A stretch of 64,000 bases of DNA from Lama guanicoe (lineage: Eukaryota): assembly GCA_013239625.1 (NCBI GenBank), contig MU053557.1, positions 3,874,123 through 3,938,122 of the forward strand, read 5' to 3'. Below, piece after piece: positions 12,075 to 63,891 of this stretch. A program made the position numbers and the translations under genes. Position 1 is the first letter of the stretch. Each line of letters starts with the position of its first letter. Under the pieces are notes generated by a model, which saw nothing but the letters and a program-made list of their open reading frames with translations, had not been told where the DNA came from and did no database searches.

Positions 12075-13680
12075 CTACAAGATATTCAGTATCCCAGGAG
12101 GTAGCCTGGCAATAGCCACTTTTGAAAGCCCCGAAGAGTTTGTGTTGAAAACCTGCACCTTTGCTAAAAACACTGCCCATTTTTTCCTTAAGATCCACAC
12201 CCGTAATCCTTAACAGCCCAGGAGACCAGCATGTCCCTGGCTCCTTCCTGTCTCTTCAGAGTTATCACCAGCCTGTATCTCTCCAACTCTCTATGCTCTA
12301 GGCAGAGAGATCTTTTCATTACTGGAATCCACTAAGCCCTCTCACAAATCAGGACCTGTGAATTTTCTTTCTGCACCTCTGTAGATATGAACTTCCCCCT
12401 TGAAATCTATCCTCCCATCATATACAGCCTTTGTCGTTACTTGAAATTGTTTTATAGAAAACAAAAAGACTACTCTGTAACACACCCTGATACTCATTGC
12501 CTAATATCTCAATCCTCACATTTATTCATATTCATATACCTGGCAATTTAATTTTACAGAGAATTCCTGCCTCTTCCTACCTTTATCACACTTTTTTTTT
12601 TCCTGACCTGTCTTCTTTTACAGCTTTGCAAGGGCTAGTCTGGTCAACATTTGTATTCCCTTTTTCACTATGATACTTTGTCCCTTGTCCCTTACTTGTC
12701 TAAGAGCCTCCTCTCCCTTCTCCAAACACCCAGATCTCACCAACTCCTGCCACCACTCCTAAATCGGGCACTGTGCTGCAGGAGACAATCGCTTATATAA
12801 CCAGGTATTTGATGCCATGACAAATACAAAGTTTTGATTCTTTAAGAGTCAAAAGACAGTTTACCCAAACTACTGCCTTTCTTTCACAAACTCCAGAGAC
12901 AATATCTGCAAACAAAGCAGATAAGTTTTAAAAAATTGAATGGTTATTTCTTTGATTAGATAAATCTGCTGATAAAATAAAGACACTTGTTCTCTGTAAA
13001 TAAATGTATGATCATTTATCTGTGTACCCAAACTAGATCTCAATGACCAAGAAAAACCCCAAATTTTAATCTAAATCAATGAGTATTTATCTATGTCCAC
13101 TGTGAATATGGCTACATTTGAAACACTTGCTATGGTAGCTTCTAAAACTAGCAACAACTCTGTCAAAAAATAGGTAATTTCCCCACTTTGTAGCTAGGAA
13201 CACTTGAGTGTGGTAAGAACAATGGCTTACATGAAGCCATTAGAATATGGAATCAAATTCAGCATCAGATTTATCTAGTGCTTTTTAGCAGCACCTCTTA
13301 ACATCATCTATTGGTGACCAGGGGCTTCAAGAAAAATGATCATCCTGATCATGAGATATTTTTGCCAACTAGTGAATGATCAAAAATGTCCCATTGGCTA
13401 TGAGAAAAACTACTCAGGAGACAAAATGTAAAATTCATATAAAGAATGAAATAGTCTCAGTCATTTGGAAGAATGCTTTTCAATCCCTTCAGTGAACTTG
13501 TCATAAGGTTCTGAGAAAATAAATGGATCTAGCCAGAACAAAGACCAGTTTTGAGATTCAACAAGCAGTGAAAAAAACAAATCCAGAGACTTCTCTCATG
13601 GTGACATTTATCTCAAAGGAGCATTTGTACCCTTCTACCCATCCACCCCTACACTCTCAGTGAGAAGTTTCAGCTCAAGA
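12075..13680 (-). pseudogene. Partial SPINK paralog relic (signal exon about 13418-13479, micro-exon 12865-12905; no Kazal exons found)
   Basis: Collinear with about 33240-34480 (shared ttgctaaaaacactgcccattttttcct and caacaactctgtcaaaa). Signal exon has ATG->AAA, an in-frame TGA at 13435-13437 and a destroyed donor. The 41-nt micro-exon (DIVSGVCERKAVVW) keeps CAG and GT. Confidence 0.8.
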
Positions 13681-14895
13681 AGGACAAAGCTGGAGGTACC
13701 ACACACCCTGATTCTAACTACACTACAAAGTTACAGTGATCAAAATAATGAGGTACTGGCATAAAAACAGACACACAGATCAATGCATACAGAGTCCAAA
13801 ATAAACCCACACTTATATGGTTAATTAATTTACAACAAAGAAGTCAAGGTATACAATGGGGAAGGATAGTCTCTTCAATAAATGGTGTTGGGAAAACTGG
13901 ACAGCCAGTCTTGGAGATGGTCTTTTTGGATTTGACATCACAAGCAAAGGCAACAAAAGAAAAAATAAACAAGTAGGAGTACATCAAACTACAAAGCTTC
14001 TGCACAGCAAAGGAAACCATCAACAAATAAAAAAACAACTTACTGAATGGGAGAAAATAATCACAAATCATATATCTGAGAAGAGATTATCCAAACTATA
14101 CAAAGAACTCATACCACTCAAAAGCAAAAAGCCCCAACCAATCCAATTAAAAAATAAGCAGAGGATCTGAATATACATTTTTCCAAACAAGACATATAAC
14201 AGATGGCCAACAGGTACACGGAAAGGTGTTCAACATCACTAGTCATCAGGGAAATGCAAATCAAAAGCACAATGAGGTATCACCTCACATCTGTCAAATG
14301 GTTATTATCAAAAAGACAACAAGTAATAGTTGTTGGCAAGGATGTGTAGATAAGGGAACACTTGCACACTGTTGGTAGGAATGTAAATTGGAATAGCCAT
14401 TATGGAAAACAGTGTGGAGGTTCCTCAAAAAATTAAAAATAGGACTAGCATATCATCTAATTATTTTACTTTTGGGTATTTATCTGAAGAAAATGAAAAT
14501 GCTACTCTAAAAAGATATATACACCACCATGTTTCTGCAACATTATTTACAATAGCCAAAATGTGGAAACAACCTAAATATCCCTCAATGAATGGATAAA
14601 CAAAATGTGATGTGTGTAGATACACACACACACACACACACACACACATAATGGAATATTATTCAGCCATAAAAAGAATGAAATCTTGCCATTTCCAACA
14701 ACATGGATGGACCTTGAGGGCATTATGCCAAGGGAAATAAGACAGAAAAAATAAATACTGCATGATCTCACTTATACGTAAAGTATAAAACAAAACAAAA
14801 AAAACGAGCTCATGGATATGAAGAGAACATATTGGTGGCTGTCTGAGGAGAGGGGTGGGAGGTGAGTGAGATAGGTGAAAAAAGATTTTTTTTAA
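13678..14895 (+). mobile_element. L1 3' fragment with TSD
   Basis: ORF2-like GKDSLFNKWCWENW; TSD agaagtttcagctca (13663-13677) / agaagttcagctca (14896-14909). Confidence 0.9.
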
Positions 14896-16039
14896 AGAAG
14901 TTCAGCTCAGTGGCTATAAACATTTTAGAAAAAAATAATTGCATTGATTTTTAAGTCATAGAAATAGAGGTGTTAGCCAAAGGGTCCCCTGAGATAAGAA
15001 GTAGTCCAGGAATAGATATAGACATTTAGCTGCCTAGATCACAGGCTCCCCTGAGTTACTCCTAAATGGTGTTGTCTTCTCTACCGACACCGCTACTTAC
15101 TGATTAATTCTCCTCAGGAGAGCTGAAATTACAGACGTGCTAGAAAAATACAAAAGAGTGGAAGAGATCTCAATGTGATCCTTTGTTCTACATCATCTCT
15201 ATCACCACTGTCCTGAGGAGTCTCAGTCCCTAGACCCCCCCATGTGGAGATTGCCTCGTGCAGTATCAACCTGGTCACTTCCAACTAGCAGGAACCTTAT
15301 ATTTTTCAGAGCTGCTTAATGAGAGCTATTTGGGAGTGACCGACAGTCCAGGAGGGATAGAGTAAAGAGGCAGCCTTTGTACAAGAACTAGAGTCACGGC
15401 ACAGCTAATGAGAAATGAATGAACCCATCCCAGTAAAGATGACAAGAACAGGAAGACACAGGGGTGGGGAAAGAAAGAATAGGAAAAGCACTTTCTTGTC
15501 ATAGGCAAAAGGAAGGGAACAAAGATCCCTGGACAAGCAAAGACCACGAGCTAAGGCTTTGAACCATTAAGGAGCATGAATTATCTGAGACAGTAAATAT
15601 TTCCTGTGATCTGACAGAGCTTACAGAAGTGTCAGAAAATTTAGGCCAGGGCTGGTTGTACAGTTTTGATGATATTCAAAACATTTATTCTTTCTAGAGA
15701 CAATGGAAAAAATAAGGTCTTTCTGAGCATGAGTGAAGTGAATAAATTTTCGTTAATAAGCATGTTTAAATTAATGAACACTTACATAACACTATATGCA
15801 TGATGTATATTTCAGAAAAGTAAGTTCTTTCACATGACATTGAAAAAGCCCAGCTTATATTAAACAAATAAAGCTCGCAACAGAAAAATTTGTTTCTCAT
15901 AAATACAAACTTCTGGTTTAGGGCAGTAGAAAATAGCTGGAATGGGGTTCCAGAGATAACTGTAAGTCTCTTGTTCTGTTACCCCAACTGCAGTTGCTTA
16001 TTTATCTTGGATGCTTTTTAATTTTTTATTTTTCCTTTT

Positions 16040-16180
16040 TTTTTTTTTTGGCGGGGTGGGGGGCGGTAATTAGGTTTATTTATTTATTTATTTATTTTTA
16101 ATGGAGGTACTGGGGATTGAACCCAGGACCTCGTGCATGCTTAAGTATGCGCTCTACCACAGAGTTATACCCTCCCCCAA
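16040..16180 (-). mobile_element. tRNA-derived SINE (Vic-1-like)
   Basis: Same core as the 2030 copy, with a (TTTA)n tail. Confidence 0.8.
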
Positions 16181-19750: not shown

Positions 19751-19829
19751 ATGCCTCCCTTTATTTTCTGTTCTTGGCCTCGGCATTTCTTTATTTACAT
19801 GGCATACTACTTACTAATCCTGGGCAAGG

Positions 19830-20350
19830 AAACTTACTGACTGCTGAATTCTGAAATCCATCCCAGTGGGCCCATTCATGCTAGAAGAGGACTCCTCTGA
19901 TGGTCAACTTGTCTCATGAGTTCCATGACAACTTTTCAGATCTTCCTGACACTTCAGGGTGGTCTAAGGCTCTTCCATCTCACCTCTTGTCTTTCATTCC
20001 TTCACTCTGAAGGAGTTTGTGACCTAAGACTCTGACAGCCTTCCTGTCTGTCTCCCCATTCCACCCACCCACTCCACCCCACAGGCATTCTTCTTACAAA
20101 ATCTTTGCAGTTTTCATCTATAAATTGCTTTTGTTTCTTGGAGAACTTAAAATAACACAGTATTTAATGTCTTTCTTTCTTAGGTCTGGTCTGAAGACTG
20201 AGTCAGGATGGAGCAGATAAGAAGTGTCAAGAGGTCCCCCAGCATGGAGAGGACTTGTGCAAGGACAGTGAGCAGGCGGGGACCAGTGGTTCGAGCAAAT
20301 GGAGCACAACCTCTTCCTCATGTGTAAGTTCAAATCCTTCTTATTGAGAA
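19830..20350 (+). repeat. Paralogous last-intron segment (old LTR-like), also at about 25520-26040 (+) and 62010-62420 (-)
   Basis: Shared ccattcatgcta...ggactcctct(g/a)atggtca, caaaatctttgca and ggagcaca(a/g)cctct motifs. Confidence 0.7.
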
Positions 20351-20425
20351 GCATGTTGTACATGTCCTAGGGAGTTTGTGTTCTTTTGATCATTTCTTTC
20401 TCTCTGACTCATTCTTTCTCTACAG

Positions 20426-20471
20426 GAAAAGTATAGAGAGCTTTGTTCATTATGAAGATGGCCATTCTTGA
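20426..20471 (+). pseudogene. Orphan SPINK terminal exon
   Basis: ctttctctacAG|G then KSIESFVHYEDGHS*. 46 nt, with TCT at the C6 position. Follows the shared intron segment; no upstream Kazal exon found. Confidence 0.7.
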
Positions 20472-22089
20472 TGGAGCTACGTAGTATTATGCCTTTTATC
20501 TTGACCCCATTTTGCAGTAGATTTGACTTGTGGGTTAAATTCAATAGCTCCTTCCTGTTATTGCCTACAAGTGGTGGGTTACTTTGCCGCAACTCAGGGG
20601 GCAGTGACATGGGGAACACTAGAGATTGCTCTTATTTCCCATTTGTTCTTTTTTTCTCTTTTAGTATCTCTATTGTGTTAAATACACAGCTTTCTTATCT
20701 CTGGTACAAGTTGAATCACATTATCTTTTTCTTTATGAAACTTCTAATTCATGCATCTAACATTCTCTTTACTGGCTAGTTAAGAAAAAATGAAAATCTT
20801 GTAGCCTGCTGTGTTCATAGGCAGTCTCTCCTGCTTTTAATCTCTGCTGATGAATATATGTAAGAAGAGACGGCTAATGTGTGAGACACAAAGAGCTTCA
20901 CAATAGTTTCAGTTCTAAGCTTCAGTTTACTTTTTCCTCACATGTCCTGCTCCAGAAGGAATGATCTGCCACAGGCACTTCTGATGGCATCAGTGTAAAT
21001 AATTTAAAGAGCTACTGCAAGAGTAATACTCACTCAACAATAATAATGGAGCACTTTCTGCATGCATCAGATTCTGTGTTTCTCCACTGAACTGGAATCA
21101 TATCTATGCTCAGAGTTTCCTTTCTGAATCCTACCTTTTTCACTGCTCTAAAAAGTAAGTAAGATTAGGGTGGCAAATGTAAGTCTAAACTGAATGTAAG
21201 TCTGAACGTGAATGCAGACTGTCTTAAGATTTTATCCCTAACATCTAGGAGGTGGGAGTTGCTATTCTCATGTTTAAAATAAAGAATTTTTATATTAAAA
21301 AGTCAAGGTTACTCAGTGGTAAATGAGATTTGAACTCAGGTTTTTCAACTGCCAAAACTCCTTCCAGAAGTCAGACTGTGAATATGAATTAACTGGAGAG
21401 ACAATGACTAGTTAAATCTTACCCCACTTCAAAGTCTCCAATGTCACCCACTTATCTTATTTAATGTAGAATTTAAGGCATTGACCCATGTGGTCTCAGC
21501 CTCGCTCCCATGAGTCTTCTTTTCTTTATATTTATTTTTTTCCCAGGTTTACTGAGATATAACTGACACATTGTTTAAGTTTAAGGTATGCACTTATGTA
21601 TGATTGGCTACTCATACATACTGAGAAACGATCACCACTGTAAGTTGGTCTCTCCTCTTCCTACTATTTATGTCGTGTCCTCCAGGCTGGGTTCCACAGC
21701 CAACTGACCCAATACTCATCTCGGAGCTTGTCAAACATACCGTTGCCCAGACATCATATATCAACAATTGATTCACAGTCTTGGTGTTGAGAATCAACAT
21801 TGATAGAAGGTCTTCAGCTGATGTCAATACCTGGTGGGGGATTTGTACTATAGTTTTATAAGATGTTCCCATTGGGAGAAGCTGGTTAAAATATACAGGT
21901 GAACTCTCGAGTATTTCTGACAACTGTATGTAAATCTACAATTATCTCAACATAAAAAAATTTTATATTTAAACTGTAAGGACAGTCCAAATTTACAGCA
22001 AATCTAATTGAGTATACTGTGTTCTAATGTTGTGAAATACTGAGAGGCTAGGCATGTGTTTAATTAGAGTTCACAAAACTCTGTGGGCT

Positions 22090-22448
22090 TTGATTCTCTT
22101 TTCCTTTCTAACTCAATAGCTTGGAAACTTTCCGCATCTCTTCTCTATCTTAAGATCTGTAATTTTTTGCATTACTTTCTCCCCTCCTCAAAGCTCTGGG
22201 TTCATCAGAAAAATGGTTCCAAACCTCCCACTGAGAGATGATCTATGTGAGATCTTTGTGACGCAGAACACAGAAAACCTCAGGGTCGTATCTGCTGTGG
22301 GCCATCTGGTTTACCCTGTAGGGCTCCTCACCGACAGTCCCATAAGGGAGCCGCCTCAGCTGGGGGAGGTCGCCGAGGAGGAGAGAGCAGCAAAGAAGGC
22401 AGAGCCACTGGAGCCGGAGACCTCACTCTCCAGTCTTCTCCATCTCAG
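22090..22448 (+). promoter_or_regulatory. Putative promoter and non-coding first exon of the 84-aa SPINK gene
   Basis: Donor CTCAG|GTAGGT at 22448 precedes acceptor tacAG at 22873. The region is conserved in three inverted copies near 50, 53.7 and 60 kb. Confidence 0.6.
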
Positions 22449-22883
22449 GTAGGTCAGCTGGGGACTATGGCATTAGCCCAGGTGTGTCGCACTGCTGTGA
22501 GGACTGCTCCAGATCAGTCCTTCCTGAATTAACTTACTATTTTCTGAGGAAAATCTGAAATTCCAAAGTGTGTATTTCTTTAAATGCAGCCAGGTTCCTT
22601 GTGGGCTGAGCCAGGGGCTGGGAGAGTAAACAGCTCCTTAAATGGGCAGAGGACTTACCTGGTGTTTCCTTCGAGTCTCTGTGAGGCCTTCGGTTCACAT
22701 GTATGTCTTGTTGATCCTCTGGGTCGGAAAAAAGGAAAAAGGGAACAGTCCACTGTAATTAGGAACTTAGGGGAGTGGAGCAGTTCATTTATCTGTAAGG
22801 AACTTACACTTGGAAATCAGCAGTTTGTCCTTGTGCTGTGTGTTATAAACATTCCTGTGTGTTTCTCCTACAGACTTGATAAA

Positions 22884-22947
22884 ATGTCCCTCTTATCATG
22901 GATCAAAGTTATTTTCATCATTGCCTTGGCATTTCCTCTTTATTCTG
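22884..22947 (+). CDS. Kazal-type inhibitor, sperm-associated acrosin inhibitor-like paralog, coding exon 1. CDS join(22884..22947,23980..24017,25078..25184,26519..26564), 84 aa
   Basis: MSLLSWIKVIFIIALAFPLYS signal peptide; phase-1 donor CTG|GTAAGT. Confidence 0.85.
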
Positions 22948-23979
22948 GTAAGTCAGTTTTCTAGTCTGCGTGAAATGTTTCCCATATCTTAGAAAACGCA
23001 GGAAACAACTTCTGTAATCTAGGAATGAAGGAGCTTGTTTTTTATTGGGTTTGTAGACCATAAACTGATTAAGTGAAAAAAGGGCATGTTACAAATGCCT
23101 TTTTAACATTGCATCAGAGGATGCCTTTTCCTCGTTTCCCATTTTAGACAAGTGGAGATAGAGTAGTGGGTTAGAACTTTGCTCTTTGTTCATCAATGAC
23201 TAAAGAATATTACCTGATTATTTTTTTCTTTTTGATGGTCAGATTGTTAAATGCAAACTACGAAGAGGAATGATTTTTTTCTAGGTTTGGAATTGCTTCA
23301 TATTCTGATTTTTTGATCACCCATTCTGAGTCCCCTAAGACAAGGTTTTGTCTAAGGAGAGAACACATTGACACATCTGGCAAAGTGATCTCTCTCGAAG
23401 CTCAAGGTAGACCATGAATTTCAGAATAAGGCATCTGTGGGCTATAAGACAGACGCACACATTTAGATCACAGTTCTAACTCACCAAGTACTAATTGATT
23501 CCTTCATATTTAAGTGATATGCTCTAAAGCATTGTCTTATCTGTCTAGGATGTCTCATCTATAAAAATGGGAAGAAAAACAGTGACATCTTCAAAGAAGG
23601 ATGTTAGGGGTTTTAAAAACACATACAATTCATTTTCACAGAGTTAGAATAATTGGGAATTTAAAAATATTTCCAAATTTGATATTGTTTTGTGAATGTT
23701 TTGTTTTGCTAATGACATGAAGGGCTTGCCTCATTACTGGGGGGGGGTCTTGAGTAAGCAATTTGCATAGGTTTCTGCTACTAAGAAATAGCCGTATTTC
23801 CTAAAGATGATTCTTCTACCCCCTTTCCTCCTCTTCTCCCTCCTTTCTCCCCTTCCCCTCCTCCTCCTTCCGTGTCCTCCTCCTCTCTTTCTTCTTCTTC
23901 CTCTTCTTCTCCTCCCCCTGCCCCTCCCCCATCTTCTCTGCCTTCCTTTTTAACTTTTCCATCTATGTGTTGGTTGCAG

Positions 23980-24017
23980 AAACCTCTTTTGCATCTGTAT
24001 CAGAATTCAAACTTCCG
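23980..24017 (+). CDS. 84-aa SPINK gene micro-exon
   Basis: ttgcAG|AA; (E)TSFASVSEFKLP; 38 nt, phase 1 to 0; donor CCG|GTAAGT. Confidence 0.8.
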
Positions 24018-24079
24018 GTAAGTTAATCCTGATGGACGCTGAAAAAGCTAAACCACTTTTCTATATTATATATTTTGTT

Positions 24080-24205
24080 TTGAGGGGGGAGGTAATTAGG
24101 ATTATTTATTTACTTATTTATTTTAATGGATGTACAGGGGATTGAACCCAGGACCTCATGCATGCTAAGCATGTGCTCTACCACTGAGCTATACCCTTCC
24201 CCTCT
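24080..24205 (-). mobile_element. tRNA-derived SINE (Vic-1-like)
   Basis: Same core sequence as the other copies. Confidence 0.8.
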
Positions 24206-25077
24206 ATAGTATACATTTTAATAGCAAAATTCATAAAAAATGTACAACAGAGAGGTCTTTCAAAAAACAAAAAGTGTTAGTATTACATTAAAGTCAAAAA
24301 AATAGAAACTTAGTCATGTAAAGCCATTTGTCATTATCTAGACAACATAAAAATGTGCATATCCCATTACACAAAAATTTAATGAATGGGCATAAGTGTT
24401 GTGTCATACAAGCATCTGAGACACAGTGGAGGGTGTTTACAGTAGAAGTGTTCATCTCAGCAAAACAAAAGAAAACAGAATCTATCTAAATCTACATGTA
24501 AGGGTGGATAATATAATAATTTCTATATACCCACATAGTATAATATTACATAAAGGTGAAAAGTTAAACTACAGTTCTAAATTCCTGAATAAACATAGTC
24601 ACAAAGAATTTTCAAAAGCAGATGAGGTAAACGTACACAAAGTATTGTTTATGTCAATTACCAGTACTGTCAACATTAAACAAATTGCACTTATAGCTGC
24701 ATATATGTATGCACACACACAGACTTAGTGAAATTATCAAGACAGGGAATGAGAAATAGAAAAATTCCATTTCATGATTTCTTCTTGAGTTTGGAAGGAG
24801 AAAAATCTAAACGGAAGTGAAGATGGTGGTCACTAAATTACAATAACATGTTCTGTGATCTCTTTAAAAAATTACAGCAGGTTTATAAAAACATTGGTAA
24901 AATTTTATTTTTTAAGTGGGATTTCTGTTTTATAAATTTTAGTGTTAGTGTTTAAAACTACTTATAGACTGTATTTTTCTAATCTTGATGTCTGGCCCTT
25001 CATATTAAGATTAAGCAAAATTTTACTGAAACTTTCATTCCCTGAGAAAGTTTATATTGTCTCTCTGTGTTTAACAG

Positions 25078-25184
25078 CCAGACTGTAAACTATATACAGG
25101 AGTTTGCACCAGCGAATATGTTCCACTCTGTGCAACCAACGCAAAAACTTATGACAATGACTGTCTGTTTTGTCATGAAAAGAT
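25078..25184 (+). CDS. 84-aa SPINK gene Kazal core exon
   Basis: ttaacAG| PDCKLYTGVCTSEYVPLCATNAKTYDNDCLFCHEK carrying C1-C5; phase-2 donor AT|GTAATA (weak). Confidence 0.85.
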
Positions 25185-26518
25185 GTAATAAGCACACAGT
25201 ATAAGTATTTGGTCCTCCAAGGTATGAAGAAATCATCACAAAGTGATAGGAAAATCCTTGTTGCTGATAACCAAGGCTCAACATACATAGAAAATTACTA
25301 AGACCTCTGTAAAAAATTAGAGGCCACTCTTGTTCCTTTCCCTGAAGTTCTTGTTTCTGAAAGTAATTTTGTATTTGAGCTCTCATTATAACTTTGTTTG
25401 ATATTGTACAAACGTGTACATCAATTAATTTCACCTAATTATGTGTCACTAATGGCAGGCTAGCAACCAACACAATGTAATTCTGTAGCCCAGATGCAGA
25501 ATCACAGCTCTCTATGGTGGCCGTGTAATTGACCCATGCAGACTTCTAGCTGAAGGAAACTAAAACCAAGGCCATTCATGCTAAAAAGGGACTCCTCTAA
25601 TGGTCAGCTTTGTCTCACAAAATCCATGACAGCCTCCAAATCTACATTGGACAGCAGGACATTGTGGAGTACCTCCATCTAATCTCATTTCCTGTCTCTT
25701 TCATCCTGAAGGAATGTGCAGTTTAAAGCTTCAGCCAGTCTTCCTACCTCCCTCCTTATTCTCTCTCATATGTGTTTCATCTCACAAAATCTTTGCACAT
25801 TTAATCCCTTAAATTGGCATCTGTTTCTGGAGAACTGCTGAGACCATCTCCAATCTCTCCACTCTCAGATCTGGGTGGGTCCTAAGACTGAGACAGGACT
25901 GAGCATGTAGGAAGAGTCAAGTGACCCCACAAGGGGACAGGACATGTGTCAGACCCTAGGAACAAGCAGAGTCCAGCTGCTTCTGGAAGTGGAGCACAGC
26001 CTCTCCATGCTATTCCACGTTCACATTCTCCTTTTTGAAAAGGTTTCCAGTGTCTCTGTGTTTAGACACTGAAAAATCCCAACTATATTCTGCATGCATG
26101 TTATCTACATTTTTGCATCATAGAAATGAGTTCAGTCTGTGCAATGGATGGTCAGACTTAAGGCAATGAATGTAGTTTCCTCTGTGATAGAATCCTGGGA
26201 GTTTAAAATTCTCCTTTTTAAAAATAGTATTTTTATTTCAGAATAATTTAAGATTTACAGAAAAATTTCAAAGATAGTAGCAAGTTTTTGTGTCTTTTAT
26301 CCAGTTTCTTCTAAGGTTAACACCATGTACAACCCTGGCACACTTGTCAAAACTAAAAAATTAACATTGGTATGTCACTATTAATGAACCAACAGAATTG
26401 TTTGGAGTTGACCAGTTTTTCCATGAATGTCCTTTGTAATATTTCTTTAAATGTAATGTACTTTATTTCTTCCTTAAAACTCTTTAATTTTTTTCTCTGT
26501 CTCTTTCTTTCTTTATAG

Positions 26519-26564
26519 AGAAAACAATGCCAACATTGATTTTCACCATTTTGGTGTATGTTGA
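26519..26564 (+). CDS. 84-aa SPINK gene terminal exon
   Basis: Long pyrimidine tract then tAG|A; (I)ENNANIDFHHFGVC*; C5-x17-C6 spacing. Confidence 0.85.
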
Positions 26565-26853: not shown

Positions 26854-26859
26854 ATTAAA
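26854..26859 (+). terminator. Probable polyadenylation signal (ATTAAA)
   Basis: Aligns with the AATAAA of the paralog at 61592-61597 (atatttca..ca[at]taaaatgtta context). Confidence 0.55.
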
Positions 26860-31337: not shown

Positions 31338-31455
31338 AGGAGGGTATAGCTCAAGTGGTAGAGCACATGCTTAGCATGTGTGAGGTCCTTGGTTCAATCC
31401 CCAGTACCTCCACTGAAAAACCAAGTAAATAAATAAACCTAATTACCTCCCCTCT
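31338..31455 (+). mobile_element. tRNA-derived SINE (Vic-1-like)
   Basis: gggtatagctcaagtggtagagcacatgcttagcatgtgtgaggtccttggttcaatccccagtacc with A/B-box-like motifs. Confidence 0.85.
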
Positions 31456-31499
31456 GCAAAAGCAAATTTACTTAAAAAAAAAAACCGATTTTTGACTGA

Positions 31500-31760
31500 A
31501 GTACTCAGCTTGGCAGAATCTATTTTCTGAAGGGCCAGGCCCCACCCAGGTCCCATGCCCAAGTAGCTGTCCTTTGTCTTTCCTAAGCCAATGAAACCAT
31601 GCTTGCTTACTCTATAAAAGCTCACCTTTTGACCTGAAAAGTGTTTGTAAGAACAAGAAGCAGCCTTCTCTGCCTCAAAATAAATTGACACTGTTGCATA
31701 TTTAATTTCTGCCGAGTTCGGGAGTTTTCTGTCTTGGAGCCCACTGTCTTGATTCCGACA
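31500..31760 (+). mobile_element. LTR-like element in the last intron of the pseudogene
   Basis: CCAAT 31588, TATAAAA 31613, AATAAA 31679; ends ...gattccgaCA. Left boundary uncertain. Confidence 0.55.
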
Positions 31761-36075: not shown

Positions 36076-36399
36076 CATTTTGTGTTCACACGGTCCCCCC
36101 AGAACCTGGGTTCTCTGGTGGTGTTTGGGAGCCTGAATTCATACAGGTCCCCCAGAACCACGGGGACTGGCTTGGATGTGCCAGCAGCTTGGGTTTGCTG
36201 GAACCCACGGGGAGCTGCCCGGTGTCACGGGAGCTAGATAGTGCTGAGGTGAGGCAGGCAGTGGTTCACAGAAATCCTGTAGCGGTCTGGTGCCATGGGA
36301 CATGCACAGGGTGGGCCCGAAGCCTAAGGGTCACTGAAGCTGCCTGTGGCTTCGGGCCTGAGTTCACGGGAGCCCACTAGGAGCCTGAAGTCACAGAAG

Positions 36400-48000: not shown

Positions 48001-49309
48001 TTATCTCTAGGAAAAGTGGGACTCAAGCACCTTTCATGTTTCATCTAATTGTAAGATTTAGTGGTTTCAAGGTTCTAAAATACTAATTGTACCAAGTTTT
48101 CTATTGAACTTCTGAAATTTATCCTTATTTGTTTAAGATATAAAATATTTGTCATTAAACGTTCTTTTGAATAAAAATGTTACATGATGTATATTTACTA
48201 TATTAGTTTCCATTCTTTAATGGAAACCAGGAAGATGTTTAACACATAATGGAATTTCATATGTGGAAGTGTATTCCAAATATACACCATCATAAGAATA
48301 ATCTGAATGCCTTTACATAATAGATTCCTGAGGTCACACCATTAAAATGGATTAAAATTTCCAGGACAGAGTTATTGGGTTACAATGGATTAACAAACCT
48401 ACTGCATAAATCTTATGATCAGGGAACTTCAGAACGTAGAATATGTGTATGATTGAATGAAATGCTGTATCCATATAGAAGCCCTGTGTGAGACAGCTGG
48501 TGTTTGGGAGATATTTACCAGGCAAGACTAATTGAAGTTGCTCTATGAATGTACACATAAATGAAAGAAAGTCATATATAGTAACTTTCTATTCATCCAT
48601 CCTATCCTTAAGTTACTGTAGGCAGTTCAAAAACAGTGTGACCAAATTATTTCAAGCACTTGTAGAAATTCTATCAATAAGCTATGCAGTATTTTTTGCT
48701 TTAGGTAGTAGATGCACAAGAACTAGTATTTGTCAATGTCTGCATTAAATCTCTTTTTTAAATTCACCATATATAATTAAATGCCTACTATATACCTGCC
48801 TTGGTGACAGACAGTAAGGATAGAATGATAAGCAAAATAGATAAGGTTATTTGCCTCAAGCAACTTGCACTCAATCAGTTAACACTATTCCAAAAAGTCA
48901 ATTTGAACTCATATTGTTTATTTGAACACTGTCTCTACCATAAAATAAATGTTTTCCTCATAAGCATACTTTTTGCCAGCTTGCGCCATTGGGATCTCTT
49001 TCATTTGGCCAGTGTCTCTTTGACATGCCACCATTCTTTTGTTATTTGAGGACTTCCTTGTTTTCTGGCAGTACAGCATGCCCTAGTCTCAACTTGTTTA
49101 TTCCTTGCCCCTCTTCTAAAATCAGCCATTTCTCTAGGACTTCTACTTCACTTAATTGGAGAATAGGATTAGAAACCAGGATCTAAGTGTTAGGTAGGCT
49201 CTCTGCTATGCGAATGTCATTGTTTCTAGGGTCTCTCAGCTAACAGAGCAGGGAAATATATGTACACATACTGTCTCCAATGGACAGACAAACAGAATCT
49301 GAGTCCACT

Positions 49310-50060
49310 TTTCTAAAGTTTACTACTTTCAAAGGATCCGCTCCAACCACCTGGAATCCTAATTAAGGTCACCAAGTCCCTTTTTGTTACCCCAACCCAA
49401 AGACATAACACGTGAACAGAAGACCTAAACATGTGAGAGAAAGTGCAGGTGTGAAGTCCTCTTTACACACAGAGGAAGGAGCTACGTACTCTCCCAATCC
49501 TCTGATAAGCCTGCAAGAATGTGTACTGCATTAATAGAAAACATACACTTTTGAATCTCAGTGTTTTCTTCAGGAGAAAAGGAACTATTATTTCTGGAAA
49601 GAATGCTATGCACCAGGGGCTACCTCCCTAGATTCCCCACATGACCTACCTCACACAGAGAAGGTGGAGAAGACAAAGGTGAACAGCTCAGGAGATTGAT
49701 TATCTTGTTTGATCTTTCTCCTGGTTCACATAGGTTCAACTGAGGAATTCTTTCATCTGTTGAGTGAGGCGCTTGATGGGGGTAAGACAGATGGCCCAGG
49801 GCAAAGTAGACACAGGACATTCAGTATTCTGCCTAAAGGCTCTAAAGTAGTTCAAGCAAAGTTGGAGACAATTTGAGAACAATTTGATCTAATAAACCCA
49901 GAAATATGGGGAGGGAGAAAGGTCATCAGAGTGCTTACAGATTCTAAGATGAGGAAGTTTTCCAAGGAAGTGGCCTAGAAAGGGGTGAGAGAATCAAAGC
50001 AAGAAAAAGAAGAGTCTGGGGAACTATAATTAGACACAGACATTACCCCTTGGGAATTTT
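49310..50060 (-). pseudogene. SPINK paralog relic: promoter and first non-coding exon only
   Basis: Similar to 53230-53960 and 59530-60190, and inverted relative to about 22090-22520. Donor GAG|GTAGGT intact at 49650; no signal exon found. Confidence 0.65.
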
Positions 50061-51289
50061 CTCTCCTAGGAGCACATCTGACTCAATTGAGTTATTCATT
50101 TTTTAAAAATTTTAACCTTTTATTATCAGATAATTATAGTTTTAAATGAGGTTTTAAATGTTTATAAATTTACCCTCTATAATAATACATTATAATTCCT
50201 ACATACAATCATGCTATTTCTAGTATCCAAACTATCTAGGAAATTGTTTTATTTTTATGTCATCTTAGAGCTATTTTCTTCAATTAGAATGTGTATACAT
50301 TAAGAGTCAAAATAAAATTGTTAGAACAAGTTAATAGATGCACAATTTCTGCCTTTTATACTTTCAAGTATTTGCACCTAAAAAAAATCTTCCTATTTTT
50401 TCCCAAGTCTTCTGTGTGAAGAAGTTATTACTGTCTGATTAAATTAATTCATAGGTATTTTGTCTTCTGCAAAATGATAACTCTGGAGTAAAAGGTAATT
50501 TACAAAATGTCATAACATAAAATCTACCTTATGAAATTTAGTATCACATGGAATATAGAGATGGAAAGAGAGAGGGAGGGAGGAAGAAGATGAAAGAGCT
50601 TGTTTCAAGTGGTAATGGATGAGCCCTTCACACCAAGCCTGCTACTTCAATTTAGAAATCCCCAAAATAAAGCTGGCTTGAAAATGGTGAACTGAATAAT
50701 CATTAAGTTCTCCTATCTAATACTCTGAAATCAATGATGTTTAGGAGAGTGTTTTAGAAATCGAAGACAGAGTCAAGTTTATGGAGGACAATAAAAGCAG
50801 AAAAATGGATCATGGAATTCCATGCAGGCAGGTAATGTTAATGATCTGGAAAATCAAAGAAGCCATAACCCTTAAAATTGAAGGCAGCCTTGTAATCATA
50901 TCTTCTAGCTGTATATAGGTGGAAGAATATGGCCACCAAATGGATCCTATCCATAGAGAAGTCAAAGACAGACATGCTTAGATCATCTCATGTGGGGAGA
51001 TATATACCAATATCTAAATTACAAAGTTGAATATTGTGCTTATTGGAAAATCAGATTCATTTATACTCTAGGTAATAGTTTGCCTTACTCTTCAAGTGGT
51101 CACAAGGCTATACTTGCCTTAAAGCAAATCACCTTATCAGATGAAAGATAAATTATCAAGTGCCATAAAGAAAATTCCTTAGGTTCTTCTGGCAAAAAGT
51201 TCAAATAATTAACAAGACAGGAGAACTAGTCTGGTTCAAATAGCTCAATAGGAACATGTAAAGCAAAATACATTTAGAAAGCCTTTATA

Positions 51290-52785: not shown

Positions 52786-53041
52786 TTCTTGAGTTACAGA
52801 AGAAAAAAAACATAAAACCTACTGCGCATTCTGATACACCAGTCTGTCTCCACTTGTCTAATGGGAAATGAAAAGAAGCAATCCACTGATGCAAGTTTAA
52901 AATCAGACATCTGTCACATGCTCAGTTTCACTTTATCAGTTTAAGTATGAGAAACCCAGTAAAATTACTTGATAGCAGTTGTTTCCTACATTTTCTGGGA
53001 TCTGTGAAGTGGTTTAACTCAGGACGGGAAATTTTACTCAC

Positions 53042-53108
53042 CAGAACAAAAAAGAAATGCAAAGAAAATGTTGCAAATAGCTTTGATCCATGATGAGAAG
53101 AAAGGCAT
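53042..53108 (-). pseudogene. Intact-looking SPINK signal-peptide exon of a truncated paralog (unit about 52810-54800)
   Basis: ccacAG|atttgataaaATG; MPFFSSWIKAICNIFFAFLFCS; donor CTG|GTGAGT. No downstream micro-exon or Kazal exon found. Confidence 0.7.
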
Positions 53109-54004
53109 TTTATCAAATCTGTGGATGAAAACTTCAGAATGGTTTATAACTCACGAACAGGGAAAAATCCTGATTTTTCTATAAAGAGAAAAACAATCCA
53201 CACTCCACACATGATGAATTTCTTATTGGTAAAGGGACGGTTCCAGCCCCCTGGATTCCTAATTTAGGTGAACCTTTTCTTTTTCTTCTCTAAACCCTCA
53301 GATTCAATAAGATGTAACAGGTGACCTGAAAGTTCCAAGATAGGTGAGAGAAAGCCTTGGATCAAGTCCTGTTTGTACAGGCAAGAAGGGGCTGCCTACT
53401 TCCCCAGCCCTTTCCATCAGCTCATAAGGAACCTGGTACATTTAAGGAAAATGAGCATTTGGGGCAGCCCTCACAGCACTGCTGCACCCTCACTGGGGCT
53501 CACTCCCTAGTCCTCACCTGAACTCCCTGACACAGGGAGACCATGGAGAGTGAGGCCACCGCCTCTGGAAACTGGAACTATGTGCTTCACCTTCCTCCTC
53601 AATCTTCCTTCTAACTAAGTTGCTCTTATTGGTAGTGGGGAAAGAGAAGGGCCAGGACAGACAAAACAGAGCCATATTCTGTGTCGTTGCAGGGGGCTGT
53701 CAAGTAGATCAGAGGGATGCTTCACAAATACTTCTCAACAGATCTTCCCTCAGGTGGAGGCTTGGGGACAACTTGATCTGATGAATCCAAAATTAGGGAA
53801 GAGAGCTGGTAAAAAAATTTTTCTAAGATAGAGAAGATAGAGATTCTAAGATAGAGAAGATAGTTGAAAGCTTTCCAAGCAACTGAGTTGGAAAGGAACA
53901 AGAGAATTAAAGCAAGAAAAGAAGAGTTTGGTGAACTGTCATTAGATATGTACTAGACCCTTGGTAGCTTTCAATACCAGAAAGGAATGGTCTTCAATTG
54001 AAAC

Positions 54005-54160
54005 TTTCTTTTCTTTTTCAATTTTTTTCTTTTTTTTCTTTCTTTGTTTCCTTTCCTTTCTTTTCTTTTCTTTCTTTCCCTTTTCTTTCTTTCTTTCCCT
54101 TTTCTTTCTTTATTTCCTTCTTTCTTTCTTTCCTTTCTTTCTTTCCTCTCTTTCTTTTAC
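54005..54160. repeat. (CTTT)n-like pyrimidine low-complexity tract
   Basis: Imperfect TTTC/TTCC repeats. Confidence 0.85.
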
Positions 54161-54904
54161 TTTGAGACAATTGTAGATCTACAATTGTAAGAAGTAAGAC
54201 AGAGCAGTCCATTTTAACCGCTTTCCCCTAATAGTTTACATACATCGCGAAAGACTGTTATTGTACAATTTGACAACCAGTACTTGACATTAGCTAAGAC
54301 CTCTTTAGGAGTCTCACCACTAAGACTGTGGAACAAGTGTTTGTCGTTGAGGCCTGGGCAGTGGTATGTTTTGAAATTTCCAGACCAGTCAGGACCAGTC
54401 AGCTTTGGGCAAGCCTGGGCCAGAGCTCAGGCTGTGAATTTTCTGGGGTAGAAGAAAAATAGAAGCTGGGGAGTTAAGTTGAGAGCAGATGAAGCGATGC
54501 CCTAAATTTGATGTTCAATAATTTTATCTTTAACTTAGGTAATTGAAGACACTGGAGGCTTTTCAAGTAAGCGAGATATTTGATCAGAGTTACCTTCTTC
54601 CTTATTAACTAATCTGCTTCACAGTCTGAGTCATTGGAAAGAGCTTTGGCAGTTGAGAGATAGAGTCCAAACTCTATCTGCCCTTTACTAATTTTGACTC
54701 AATATTTAGACTTGCTAATATATACTTTCTTATTTTAAATATGAGAGTAAGAATTCCTAACTCCTTTGCTTGTCTTAAATGTTACAGGTAAAATCCTTAA
54801 ACTGTCTTCATTTAAACTGTGTAGTTGGCAAACATTTGTCACTCTGATCCTACCTGCTCCTTTTTCACAGTGAAGAAACCCAGTATTTAGAAAGAAACAT
54901 TTAA

Positions 54905-54985
54905 GTTATAGCCCAGTGGTAGAGCGCATGCTTAGCATGCATCAGGTCCTGGGTTCAATCTCCAGTACTCCATTAAAAAAAAAAT
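54905..54985 (+). mobile_element. tRNA-derived SINE (Vic-1-like)
   Basis: tatagcccagtggtagagcgcatgcttagcatgcatcaggtcctgggttcaatctccagtactcc plus A tail. Confidence 0.8.
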
Positions 54986-55899
54986 TTAAGATGAATACTT
55001 TTCCAGGCCAATTTAACCAAAGGACCCACAAGTAGTAAAGTGACTGTTATGCTCTTTGAATTATTGATTTAGACACCATCAGAGATGCTTGTAATAGACC
55101 ATTTCTTTTGGGGCAGGATATTTTAGGGAAAAACAAACTGAAGCCTAGAGGTGAAGTTATGTGAAAGCTCTTTATATATTCCATACACTTATATATATTT
55201 ATTGACAGAGATTAAGAGCAGGAGAGATAATCTCTGACTCACAATTGGTTTCTAAATTTAACAGAAAAGGAAATGTTAGGTGTGTAGATTTTTTTAATAC
55301 AACTTCACGAAGAAAAAAAATGTATATCTTATTCAAATTATGTCAGAGATGGTGGTAAGAAGGAACACACTATGAATTTGAGAAGCAGACATTTTAAAAG
55401 ACAAAGTCTAGGAACTTAGAGCAGTCTTGATCTTTCCTAAGTCATTATTACCATTAAGTGGGGGGCAAAGAAACTCACCACTCTGGGCAATAATAGAGAT
55501 GAGCTACTTAACTTAAGCATGTAAAGACACCAGCTAAGATTAATACTGGACCCTCCCCTAGGTGAGTGACTAGTACAGTTTTTTTTTTTTAAGAGGCCAC
55601 ATACGTTTAAAAACTGAATTATTTAAGTCCAAATTTCCTAAATGTTCAAAAGTGATTGGATTCTTCTAATAAGTGTCATACCACAGGAGAGACCAAAGGG
55701 GTTTGATAACAAAACCAGGAGATAAAAGTACTGGGCTAGAAACAAGGACAATTCTTTGTAAACCATGTTTCTAGAGGTTGGAGTGTCATGCTTGAATTCT
55801 TTCTCATGGGAAGGGAAGTGCGTGTTGAATAGAGAATGTGCATACTTGCAGACAGAACATGATTATAAAGTTGAGTAACCACTAACTGCCAGGAAATTT

Positions 55900-57980: not shown

Positions 57981-59374
57981 ATGCAATGTATTGTAATGGT
58001 GCATTTATGAAATCTACATTTGTCTAAATCGAAAAATTTTACAGCACAAAAAGTAAATCCTGATGTATGTAAACTAAAACATTATTTGGGAGGTTGGAGG
58101 ATACCTAGGTAGAATGCAGATGGTAACAAATTAATCTAAAATGATCTAACTGTGCTACATGTATATGAAATAACCTAAAGGAAGGGGGTAGGGAAGTGAG
58201 GTGCTGACCTAAGTAACTTTAGTCATAAGTGGAGTCCAAGAGAAAAGGCAGAAAGTACTCCACATAAGCATTGTACGCTAGTGATAAAGTTATTTTTTTT
58301 CCCCAAAAGTGTGCAGGTTAACAATTCTGATACTACCATACCTGAAGACTCATTCTGTTGTACATTTTCTTTGGTGAGTTTTGTGTCAAATTTTTCAATT
58401 TAATGAGTTTAAAATTTTACCATTTTCTACTTCCAAATCAATTAGTATTAACTTACTGGATATTTGTAAATCGATGATTTTATAAAGATATTTTCTACAA
58501 TCAAAGCAGAGATTAAAAAGTTAAAAAATAAGAAAATAACATAGTTTATGGAAAAAGTACTCACATCTGTTTGCAGTAGAAATTCTTGTAAATTGCCTAT
58601 TTATTGCAATTAATAAGAGGATTTTTGTGGCATTAGTAAAAAAAAATCAACCTAAAATGAGCCAACTATTTAAAATGTTTTATTTGAAAAAAAACTGTAA
58701 TATGCTATTTTTAATAACCTCATACTCTGCTTGACAATATAATTTTTTGTGTGTAAATTTTTAAATGAGCCGTCCTGCTACTGGGGAAGAGAATGTCTTG
58801 CACGTATTTACTAAAATAAGAAAAATATATTAGCATTCTGTCCTACTTTTGGGGTTCTAGCTAACACCTCACAGCTTACCTTAGTCTGAAATTGAGGGAC
58901 AGCTTTGAGCTTCAAAGGCAGATAAGTTGTCAGCAGAGGGATTCATGAGTCCACTTCTTAGGTAAAGCCTTGACTTTAGTAGATTCAGGGCTGGCAAACA
59001 ACAAATTAGATGGTCAAGCATTGCCAGAATTAGAACACATCACCCCTCCTTACATTTTGCATTTCACAATTGTGGAATCTGGGCCTCTAAGGGAAAAAGA
59101 ATTTAGTTAAAATTCTTGAGTTAGAGATGAACAAAGACCTAACACCTACTGCCCATTCTGCCCACCAGTCTGTTTTAGCTTCTCGAATGTGGGAAATGAG
59201 GAAAAGCAATCCACTGATGTAATTATTAAAAAAGGCATTTGGAACTGTTTCAGTTTACTAGCTTAAGGATTACAAACTTCATAAAACAGCCTTCTCTTTT
59301 TTCAAAATAACAGGAGTTACTTCCTTCATTCTCTAGGATATGTGGTATTTTGCCCAAGACTGAAATTGACTGGC

Positions 59375-59443
59375 CAGAGTAAAAAAAGGAAATGCCAAGC
59401 CAATGATGAAAATAGCTTTGATCCATGGTGAGAAGAGGGACAT
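59375..59443 (-). pseudogene. Disabled SPINK signal exon of a truncated paralog (unit about 59130-61450)
   Basis: MSLFSPWIKAIFIIGLAFP, then a +2 T-run frameshift (69 vs 67 nt); donor GTAAGTCA changed to GCCAGTCA. Confidence 0.75.
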
Positions 59444-60389
59444 TTTTTCCAGGCTGTGGAAGATACCTGTAGGAGTGTTTGTAACAATGGTACACACCAC
59501 ATTAGATGGAAAGAAACCAGAGCCAGGTTCTCGAAATTTCCTCCCTTCTAAAGGAATTGCTCCAACCTCCTAGAGGACTATACCTTTTTTCCTTCCCCTA
59601 ACCCTACAATTCAATAGAACCTAAGTCATTATTGGAAGGCTTCCCCAGAGATGTTTAAGAAGGTCCAGGAAAATAACTGTCAACAAACTGGAAAGCAGCC
59701 CTCCTGGCCACGGTACACACCAGGACTGCCACCCTAGAACCCCAACAAGTGACCTGACCTGCCTGACAGGGAGAAACTGGGGAGTGGTGGTGGTGGCTCT
59801 GAGACAGTGGCTGTCTTGTTCACCTTCCCTCCTCAGCCATCTCCTTCCTGCTCAGTCTGTTTCATTGGTTGGCTGGTGAGGAGTTTGACTGGGGTGAGCA
59901 TGATGGGCAGGGCAGATAAGACTCAGAGGTATGCTGTGTCCTCCCTAGGAGCTGTAAAGGAGGTCATGAGAGATGCTTCACAAGTAATTGTCAATTAATC
60001 TTCCCTCAGCAGGAGGCCTGGGGGACAACTTGATCTGATGTACCCAGAAGTATGGAGAAGGGTCAGAGATCCTAAAATGGAAAAGGCAGGTGAAAGCTTT
60101 CCAAGCAAGTGAGTTCAAAACGGTAGAGAGAATCAAGCAGGAAAAAGAAGAGTCTGGGAATGATAATCAGATAATTCAGGGCCTGCACCCTAAAGATTAA
60201 AAAAAAACTACAGGCATATTAGAATTCCGTGGGAAATTTTCTAGAGTATGAACGCAGTATCCTGCAATCAATAGTGTGAACTGGTAGGTAGAGGAGGCCT
60301 GGGCAGTGGGACTTTGTAAAAGCTCCCGGAGAAGTCCCCTGTGCAGCCAGGTTTTGGAGAAGCTTGTCTTGGGGATGGGATGCGAGTAT

Positions 60390-61591: not shown

Positions 61592-61597
61592 TTTATT
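61592..61597 (-). terminator. Polyadenylation signal of the acrosin inhibitor-like gene
   Basis: AATAAA on the minus strand about 275 nt after the stop. Confidence 0.65.
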
Positions 61598-61872: not shown

Positions 61873-61918
61873 TCAGCACTCACCATAATGACTAAAATCG
61901 AATTTTCCACTATTTTCG
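61873..61918 (-). CDS. Sperm-associated acrosin inhibitor-like Kazal protein, terminal exon
   Basis: tttcttcctttacAG|C; (L)ENSGKFDFSHYGEC*. Confidence 0.88.
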
Positions 61919-62800
61919 CTGTAAAGGAAGAAAAATAAATTATATTGTAAAAATAGGAAAATCACCTGATCTTGCACTGAGTGCTTCTCGGGGAGGAGCA
62001 CCTGCACGTGAGGCAGTGAGGAGAGGCTGTGCTCCATTCCAGGAGCAGCAGGGCCCCTCGGAGCCCCCCACCCTGCCCAGGTCCTCCTGACCAGGGGCTC
62101 CTCGACTCCTCCTGACTCAGCCTTGGAGCCCACCCAGGCCAGAGAGAAGATGGATTTCCCATTGTTTGAGTTGCTCTCTGTTAGAGAAGCCACTTTGGGG
62201 ATTAACTGAGAGGAAACACCTATGTGAGAAAATGAGGTAGGAAGTAGCCAGGCTGGCTGAGCCTGGGACTTGCAGGCTCCCTCCTGGGGAGGGGACAGGA
62301 AGGGAGGTGGGGTGATGTGTCCTGAATGCCATGGAGTTCAGGAGACCAAGTGGACCATCAGAGGAGTTTCTTCCTGGCAGGAAGTGCTCAATCTGAGGGA
62401 TTTAAATTTCTGTAGTCAGGCTGGTTTCTTGCTCAGTCCTGCTCCCTGTAGCTCGGCGCTACACTGTGGAGATTATCATTCAGTGTCTGGACTTCTGAAT
62501 TACATTCTATTGGTCACCAGACTGCCGTTAGTAAGTCATAATAATTAAATTAAGTTAAATTGATTCCTGCTTTTGCAGAATATCCTGGAGGGATATGTTG
62601 AGAGGTGAAATCAAAAGTACTTTTAGAAACGAGAACTTCAGGGAAAGGTACAGGTGTGTTTTCTGTGGCTTTTACAGAGAGAGCACAGTTATTTCCCATT
62701 TACACTGTGTCTAGACTATCGGAAGCATGGGTGTTCCTCTCATTTTGTGGTGGTTTCTTCATTATTTTGGAAGAGTCAGTATTTAGTCTTGTGTTCTTAC

Positions 62801-62916
62801 AGCTTTTCACTGCAGAAAACGCATCTGTTGGAATAAGTTTGGCCATTGGTTGCACAGACTGGATCCATTTCTCTGGTGCAATAATGTAATTGATCCACAT
62901 ACACATCACAGTTTGG
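62801..62916 (-). CDS. Sperm-associated acrosin inhibitor-like Kazal core exon
   Basis: ttaatAG| PNCDVYVDQLHYCTREMDPVCATNGQTYSNRCVFCSEK, donor CT|GTAAGA. Closely resembles the recalled pig sperm-associated acrosin inhibitor (CTREMDP.C.TNG..Y.N.C.FCSEKL). Confidence 0.9.
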
Positions 62917-63853
62917 CTATTAAAGAGACAACAAAATTTTTCAGATAATGAATTTTTGGAATAAAATGTTCTTTGTTCTTAATACAGTATGCTATGCATC
63001 AAAATGGAATGTATCCCTACATTGAGGTTTAAAAATAAACATCAAGGTACTTACATAATGCTTAGGAAAAAATTATTGATATATTTTTACAACTCCAATG
63101 TTATTTTTTTATAGAAATGGCTGAATGCTCTTTTATAATTTAGCCTCTCTGCCCCTACTTCTCCTCATATCTGGGTCAGATTTTCCCCATTATCTCAGAA
63201 GAAATCATAACCCTGAATTGGTTATAATTCCCCTGTCTCATTAGTTCCACTAGTAGATAAACTGATAGTTTCCGATTATCACCACATATGTATGTATTCA
63301 TATATGTGAGTATGTGTGTTTATAACCATGGACATATATATGGAATTTGTTTAGTGATGGCAGTAATTGCACACATAATTGTGTGTATTCTTATGTGGCC
63401 TGCTCTTTAAATGTCTTTTGATACCACTATCTATTTAGATGTTTATAACTGAAGGTGGTACTCTTCACCTCCATATTTCAGTCTGTGAGTATATGAAAAC
63501 TATTATATTTTATTCGTGTATGAAGAAATTAGCTTTTTTAAACCCTCTTGTTTTGCTAGGATAAGCAAATCTACTTTAAACCCCCTTTAACAAATCTTTT
63601 CGGATGCTTGTCTAAAACAAAGTTTATGCCCAATAATAAACTTTTGAATAATGGGATTTTTTACCTTGTCTGAAATGACAAATGGTTGTATATGGCTGCA
63701 AGATTCCATTTCTAGAACTTAGTATAATAATACTTTTTTTCTTACTTTTTGAAGGATTATTCTGTTGTATATTTGATAAAATTTGCTGTTAAAACTTAAA
63801 AAAAATTTAAAGTTTACCTTTTTCAATTTCCAAATTAATCAGTATAAACTTAC

Positions 63854-63891
63854 CTTTTCACGTGTGTCTGCTGAAGGTGCAAAACCAGTTT
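63854..63891 (-). CDS. Sperm-associated acrosin inhibitor-like micro-exon (signal exon lies beyond the window)
   Basis: ggctgcAG|AA; (E)TGFAPSADTREK; 38 nt; donor AAG|GTAAGT. Confidence 0.85.

Follow-up and report, generated by a model that had tools for sequence, protein, structure and literature searches.

The question raised by a 64,000-nucleotide stretch of the Lama guanicoe genome (assembly GCA_013239625.1, contig MU053557.1, positions 3,874,123 to 3,938,122; hereafter the window; 38% guanine plus cytosine (GC), no N gaps) is whether the SPINK-type Kazal inhibitor genes that it carries beside the MARCOL gene are a rapidly changing array or the remains of an old one. An initial annotation, made from the letters alone, had described a birth-and-death array of eight acrosin-inhibitor-like SPINK paralogs in both orientations, with two intact-looking genes, one near-complete pseudogene and five partial relics, and had taken it for rapid turnover of reproductive protease inhibitors. 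The family, the paralogy and a mammal-wide birth-and-death process all held up, while recent births in the window did not: the window records old births and later camelid deaths, not rapid turnover. We consider it highly probable that the genes next to MARCOL form a tandem cluster of long standing, made up of secreted Kazal inhibitors with one domain and four exons each, a cluster of a known and ordinary kind. In all, the window holds two intact genes, one full-length likely pseudogene and eight relic pieces (Table 1, where units are lettered A to J). What is new is an intact gene that seems to be missing from annotation and has an unusual reactive site, a camelid pseudogene, and a strand discrepancy with public gene models.

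Before self-blastn, repeats were masked by hand, with families taken from an unmasked self-blast and from visual recognition; the labels L1, SINE and L2 are presumptive and do not come from a library, and translations resembling L1 ORF2 were seen in frames of the window. The unmasked self-blast gave 108 matches, the majority of them multi-copy repeats. After masking, 25 matches were left, every one joining claimed units or spacers and running colinearly over exons, introns and flanks, against none in five of five locally shuffled windows, so that SPINK-unit homology was borne out at all eight places and the masked comparison identified the units as real paralogs. The G-to-A, B-to-E and E-to-F spacers are likewise homologous, which is a mark of head-to-tail tandem duplication. 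An exon-profile scan, in which profiles recover their own training pieces by construction and only new matches are informative, added exon 3 of relic D (E 0.005) and, at 47.8 kb, a piece resembling exon 4 (E 0.0007). Exon 1 of the A/B type and that of the C type cross-matched at E 1e-4 to 5e-3, and shuffled sequence gave a best E of 0.82 or worse. Pairwise shuffle tests gave 0/1000 for six of eight pairs and 1/1000 and 32/1000 for the other two, figures that are optimistic since the targets were picked after the fact. Exon 3 of A, B and C scored 43.0, 48.5 and 40.6 bits, respectively, against Pfam Kazal_1 (cut-off 21). Among the exons of these three genes, just two (exon 1 of A and exon 3 of C) lie in frame within stop-to-stop frames of at least 100 residues, and B exon 4 is misframed.

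The age of the units follows from two kinds of evidence. Kimura two-parameter distances (K2P) for all 14 non-coding unit or spacer pairs lay between 0.28 and 0.46 (at least 0.36 in 12 of the 14), against 0.17 for one local L1 pair and 0.10 and 0.12 for two SINE pairs. Counterparts outside camelids were found for A in ruminants and rhino, for B in carnivores, pangolins and whales, and for C in horse and ruminants, the splits concerned being about 60-80 million years old. From the distances and these counterparts in other mammal orders, we infer that the births of the A, B and C lineages predate the camelid lineage, which runs counter to the rapid turnover first proposed.

The product predicted for gene A is the most unusual of the three. 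Its coding exons (64/38/107/46 nucleotides, phases 1/0/2) are bounded throughout by GT-AG splice sites and form an open 84-residue frame with six cysteines at the classical Kazal positions; exon 1 is predicted by alignment with homolog signal peptides to encode a signal peptide, and poly(A)-type signals stand at 26854 and 26883, about 300 bases downstream. In canonical Kazal inhibitors an exposed loop binds the serine protease, and its P1 residue chiefly determines specificity, Arg or Lys serving for trypsin-like enzymes (PMC8131977); an Arg-to-Ala change ended trypsin inhibition in one such protein (PMC8131977). Acrosin is itself a trypsin-like enzyme, and its inhibitors in mammals belong to the Kazal proteins and come mainly from the seminal vesicle (PMC12209203), with sperm-associated and seminal-plasma forms in boar that are shed during capacitation (PMC6715765). 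The P1 residue of A is Ser (codon AGC, one base away from Arg), whereas of the 68 database rows of A/B type 65 have Arg or Lys and none has Ser, these rows, which include isoforms and close species, not being independent; among the counterparts of A it is Arg in 12/12 bovid rows and Lys in 4/4 rhino rows. On this basis, gene A can encode a well-formed Kazal protein, but one that would probably inhibit acrosin and other trypsin-like enzymes poorly; it may have been retargeted, have become a non-inhibitory sperm-coating protein or be decaying. The male-tract Kazal paralogs SPINKL and Spink10-12 of mouse, for which little or no protease inhibition is shown (PMC6613004, PMC13639018), include a decapacitation factor, SPINKL (PMC6613004); its likeness to A is by analogy only.

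The closest relatives of A by identity are buffalo acrosin inhibitor 1 (70%), a rhino protein (67%) and the zebu acrosin inhibitor 1 (65%). The bovid cluster (XP_070649895.1 and others; 65-70% identity) has a similar signal peptide and C-terminus and, as in A, six residues between cysteines 1 and 2 where B has nine; it differs in its P1 Arg, and tree support for the pairing is weak. We take the bovid protein to be the one with the alias BUSI-I. Two protein searches (13 and 107 candidates, with alignments returned for 10 and 47) yielded no camelid A-type record, and the Kazal words of A or C occurred in no retrieved protein (the word search uses at most 100 words), which suggests that A is unannotated in camelids. 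Under-annotation of the locus, as first supposed, applies to A only; B and MARCOL-type genes are in RefSeq. That these are reproductive inhibitors, as the initial annotation assumed, may be read from the names of homologs only.

Gene B is more conventional. The in-window exons (38/116/46 nucleotides) form an open frame with six cysteines, and P1 is Arg (codon AGA). These exons are identical over 65/65 residues to a Camelus model of the camelid sperm-associated acrosin inhibitor (XP_014416241.2, XP_072811251.1, LOC105097008), P1 is Arg in 11/11 camelid rows, and B groups with the camelid models; the tree, built from 50 rows over 88 columns, kept those models and left out the window fragment of B. 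Judging by the loop, B very probably still inhibits trypsin and acrosin in semen in the canonical way. Its first exon falls past base 64000, so that of the two genes called intact, A is confirmed over all four exons and B over exons 2-4, its 5' intactness resting on database models. As a separate observation, a stretch in an intron of relic E (58884-58991, minus strand) serves as the terminal exon of B isoforms from dromedary and Bactrian camel (35/36 residues), confirming a B-then-E order on one strand in camels.

Gene C (64/39/116/46 nucleotides) is frameshifted, in keeping with the near-complete pseudogene originally described. Its exon 2 is two bases short compared with 10/10 horse and ruminant rows, and its last cysteine is replaced by tyrosine, leaving the six-cysteine set incomplete. 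Because these are two separate lesions, C is likely a pseudogene; loss in the T-run alone could be a sequencing error. A mutated splice acceptor was rejected as the nature of the first lesion, as the canonical acceptor is the one used in orthologs and it is the exon that is two bases short. In the tree, C joined horse and buffalo 'ovomucoid-like' proteins with 100/100 support, and the cattle members of this cluster are named SPINK10; SPINK10-14 are described as poorly characterised paralogs (PMC13639018). The horse and bovid 'ovomucoid-like' and 'SPINK10(-like)' proteins (XP_070089185.1, XP_025148255.1, XP_024851017.1) are 64-66% identical to C and have Asn at P1 in 7/10 rows, as C does; they differ from it in lacking its two lesions, and D is a second dead copy. 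We take C to be the broken camelid ortholog of a gene that appears intact in horse and cattle.

Our reading of an old cluster is built on direct observations of unit homology, head-to-tail spacers, exon plan, lesions and closest database relatives; the distances between the mature coding parts of A and B, 0.46 nonsynonymous (dN) and 0.86 synonymous (dS) changes per site, also count in its favour. Under it, unequal crossing-over would have given rise to the A/B-type copies and an earlier duplication to the C-type pair, for the most part before the camelid lineage parted from those of ruminants and horses; inversions would have produced the two orientations; and most copies would then have been lost, either through deletions, many of them at L1-like insertions, or through small lesions. 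In the present state, the P1 Arg loop of B would block trypsin and acrosin in semen and C would be dead in this sequence. SPINK genes form a cluster at human 5q32, and those with a single domain have four exons (PMC8873584). Some points weigh against this reading. Gene A is not placed by starred support: its nearest rows in the tree are rhino and bovid proteins, no starred clade includes it, 88 columns were kept, and orthology with acrosin inhibitor 1 comes down to identity and one shared deletion. The A-B exon identity (66-70%) is not above the intron identity (69-71%), which, together with a dN/dS of about 0.5 on 62 codons, argues against strong constraint. Finally, a discrepancy in a leader exon may betray one recent duplication or move.

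This leader exon, U, sits upstream of A between clean splice sites and reads open in the frame of A exon 1. Its translation matches a Vicugna pacos RefSeq model over 43/43 residues and Camelus models over 40/43, as expected of a South American camelid. In RefSeq, the models from alpaca, dromedary, Bactrian camel and wild camel, the very models of the sperm-associated acrosin inhibitor to which B corresponds, splice U to the first exon of B. One prediction from wild camel, EPY79632, strings together a different exon 1, then U, exon 1 of A and exons 2-3 of B; in the window, however, B is on the opposite strand to U and 40 kb away. The model exons upstream of U were not found in the window. Either a near-identical U-A block lies upstream of B past the window end, or the window differs from the reference sequences by a move, an inversion or a misassembly. 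A deer model has a further upstream leader piece in common with long camelid isoforms, which suggests that tandem paralogs may be fed by distal leaders that they share.

One explanation, to which we give some but not predominant weight, is that the G-U-A block (about 19.8-27 kb, plus strand) was copied recently, by inverted duplication or transposition, from a block whose home lies upstream of B on the minus strand beyond 64000, in an ancestral head-to-tail array G-A-B-E-F-H; this would be one real recent birth. The chaining of U (and of A exon 1) with B in the four RefSeq models and EPY79632 fits it, as do the model exons missing from the window, the match of the G-to-A spacer to minus-strand spacers, and the state of G, which lacks its 5' half and whose homology stops near 19.8 kb as at a block edge. 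Yet no second copy lies within the window, the block edges show no target-site duplication (no exact match of at least 11 bases; one of 10), EPY79632 is a prediction on an old draft, and an inversion or assembly difference fits the same data. The latter, that A is single-copy and the window carries an inversion or a misplaced contig relative to reference camelid assemblies, with 'both orientations' partly an artefact or polymorphism, carries about the same weight. It draws on the same U-to-B discrepancy and on our seeing neither a camelid A-type protein nor a second A, but N gaps are absent from the window, one inversion would not do unless the upstream exons had also been lost from 1-22 kb, and MARCOL, I and J on the plus strand against C and D on the minus strand give two orientations regardless. 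Whichever applies, the discrepancy flags a real recent rearrangement or an assembly problem.

That gene A is a silent pseudogene in waiting, unexpressed and with a frame open by chance, seems to us rather unlikely. The lack of any camelid A-type protein among the 13 and 107 candidates and a P1 one base changed from Arg are in its favour; camelids also have no seminal vesicles (PMC13552269), the usual source of acrosin inhibitors (PMC12209203), and Kazal, SPINK and acrosin-inhibitor terms were absent from 3/3 supplementary files of an alpaca sperm proteome (PMC12631973). Against this, A retains all four of its exons intact, along with their splice sites, the six cysteines and the poly(A)-type signals, and a proteome searched against an annotation without A cannot show A; B is missing from the proteome too. 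Public RNA runs, three of them labelled reproductive system, contained a fraction of 0.06-0.25 of the words from 22-27 kb, which is no evidence of expression. A more far-reaching picture, which we regard as unlikely, would make A an expressed, unannotated counterpart of bull acrosin inhibitor 1 with an Arg-to-Ser reactive site in a family without seminal vesicles, directed at another target or acting as a non-inhibitory sperm coat, with the A block recently duplicated or flipped in South American camelids and its leader exon also feeding B. If A is expressed with P1 Ser, it would offer a simple test of changed protease control in camelid semen; viscous semen and the lack of seminal vesicles hamper assisted breeding in these animals (PMC13552269). 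For now the gain is mainly one of annotation, namely the missing gene A, pseudogene C and a relic map in a poorly described part of the SPINK cluster.

Rapid, ongoing, camelid-specific turnover of all units is improbable. It could draw on the many dead copies and on the varying number of intact copies among mammals: the sets retrieved, although retrieval was incomplete, comprised four types in cattle (one of A, two of B and one of C), two types in cats and one each in rabbit, lemur and elephant, sets also differed in whales, and no pig protein was among the matches. It could also draw on the signal-peptide exons and nearby intron of A (22884-22947), F (53042-53108) and E (59375-59443), which are closer to one another (K2P 0.28-0.33) than the rest of the units (about 0.4), with an A-F exon 1 dS of 0.08 on 13 sites; this closeness may possibly reflect old gene conversion or constraint. 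But even the closest pair in the window stands at K2P 0.28 (a recent copy outside it being possible), and the A, B and C lineages are older than camelids. Independent transposon copies have next to no standing as the source of the similarity since, although most unmasked self-matches were multi-copy repeats, the 25 that survived masking are colinear over exons, introns and flanks and the Kazal exons exceed the Pfam cut-off.

Table 1. Features of the SPINK cluster and its neighbour in the window (positions are those of the window)
Feature	Position	Strand	Composition and support
MARCOL	3305..8655	+	Exons 3305-3353, 5188-5828 (Gly/Gln repeats), 7518-7639 and 8610-8655 (Kazal domain with four cysteines); neighbour, outside the eight units
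Unit D, relic paralog of C	11128..13667	-	Three exons; self-blastn E 7e-78; 0/1000 shuffles
Unit G	19820..20514	+	Exon 4 relic (from 20426) preceded by the 3' part of intron 3; self-blastn E 2e-40
G-to-A spacer	20535..21526	+	Homologous to E-to-F and B-to-E spacers
Leader exon U	22322..22448	+	127 nucleotides, AG/GT; upstream of A; joined to B in camelid database models
Gene A, intact	22874..26564	+	Exons 22874-22947 (ATG 22884), 23980-24017, 25078-25184, 26519-26564
Decayed second exon 3 in A intron 3	26073..26194	+	Stop codon, first cysteine gone; self-blastn E 1e-8
Gene C, likely pseudogene	31206..34319	-	Exons 34319-34226 (ATG 34289), 33654-33616, 32941-32826, 31251-31206
Unit I	37821..38319	+	Exon 1 relic 37860-37924 (65 nucleotides) and intron 1 start; E 3e-5; 0/1000 shuffles
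Piece J, weaker	47823..47924	+	Exon 4-like relic; E 7e-4, outside training set
Unit H	49286..50101	-	Upstream-region homology only, no coding exon; self-blastn E 9e-39
Unit F	52786..54012	-	Upstream region and open 67-nucleotide exon 1 (53108-53042), cut at L1-like repeat
E-to-F spacer	54452..55516	-	Self-blastn
Unit E	58438..60173	-	Upstream region, exon 1 of 69 nucleotides (59443-59375), exon 2 of 38 nucleotides (58494-58457)
Gene B exons 2-4	61873..63891	-	63891-63854, 62916-62801, 61918-61873

The five partial relics first listed all proved homologous to SPINK units but held few exons: three in D, two in E, one each in F and G, and none in H. The list also needed extending, as D reaches to about 11.1 kb with its exon 3 relic, and I, J and the exon 3 relic in A had not been included. 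Exon 1 of D has no ATG, exon 2 measures 41 nucleotides (12865-12905) and exon 3 is decayed (about 11553-11654); no exon 4 was found by exon-profile or pairwise scans. In E, exon 1 is out of phase with GC at the donor, and exons 3-4 are absent. The 5' half of G is absent from the window; a leftward extension of G to 19.5 kb was rejected (62 and 10 of 300 shuffles), and a likeness of 19.15-19.8 kb to other L2-like pieces had no support (105 and 148 of 300 shuffles). No exon 2 or 3 of I was found in 38-47.8 kb. When piece J was compared with exon 4 of A, none of 1000 shuffles did as well, against 1 of 1000 for C and 32 of 1000 for B; it is possibly the 3' end of I.

Several relics end next to repeats, the unit ends of F, E, D and I all adjoining multi-copy ones. 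The end of F at 52786 is seven bases from a repeat ending at 52779, that of I at 38319 is beside a repeat starting at about 38352, and those of D and E are within about 500 bases of such repeats; these insertions may be either the cause or the aftermath of gene death. Within intron 3 of A, a weak exon 3-like stretch (25406-25507, plus strand; independent E value 0.03) could be an older exon duplication or chance, and was not counted.

The neighbouring gene MARCOL has an open spliced frame with GT-AG sites and four exons on the SPINK phase plan. It ends in a four-cysteine Kazal domain in which cysteines 1 and 5 are absent (Kazal_1 39.4 bits), is 70-88% identical to database MARCO-like proteins, and has Ser at the P1-equivalent position, as in 14/17 database rows. 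The MARCO-like proteins of other laurasiatherians (cats, dogs, deer, bats, hedgehog) have the same signal peptide, Gly/Gln repeats and four-cysteine Kazal end; repeat length varies, with nothing else notable. A platypus protein has the MARCOL build with a short linker. The proximity of MARCOL to an inhibitor in muntjac (XP_065776275 and XP_065776284) is one of accession adjacency only. Human SPINK2 lies on another chromosome. The boar sperm-associated acrosin inhibitor is called 'SPINK2' in PMC6715765, and database proteins so named map beside MARCOL; this alias may be wrong.

Wider searches added little. The PDB yielded general Kazal relatives only; in a profile search of 1.84 billion representatives the best 150 of 6304 matches were all multi-domain Kazal proteins, and a metagenome scan gave 80 loci at 42-76% identity, 0/80 of which matched window DNA at E <1e-10, so neither was used. 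We found no paper on the evolution of this sub-cluster, although older bull and boar work, which sits in subscription journals, may hold it. Elsewhere in the window, 36100-37400 is a GC-rich island (64% GC; CpG observed/expected 0.53 against 0.20 window-wide) with an internal duplication of about 130 bases, 500 bases upstream of relic I, and may represent a promoter or the 5' end of a repeat. At 42594-42774 a 91-base unit that includes a TA-rich run is duplicated in tandem (93% alike). Lastly, at 51855-52779 an L1-like copy has its 5' piece inverted relative to the copy at 9.6-10.5 kb, an inverted 5' piece being the pattern of twin-primed L1 insertions.

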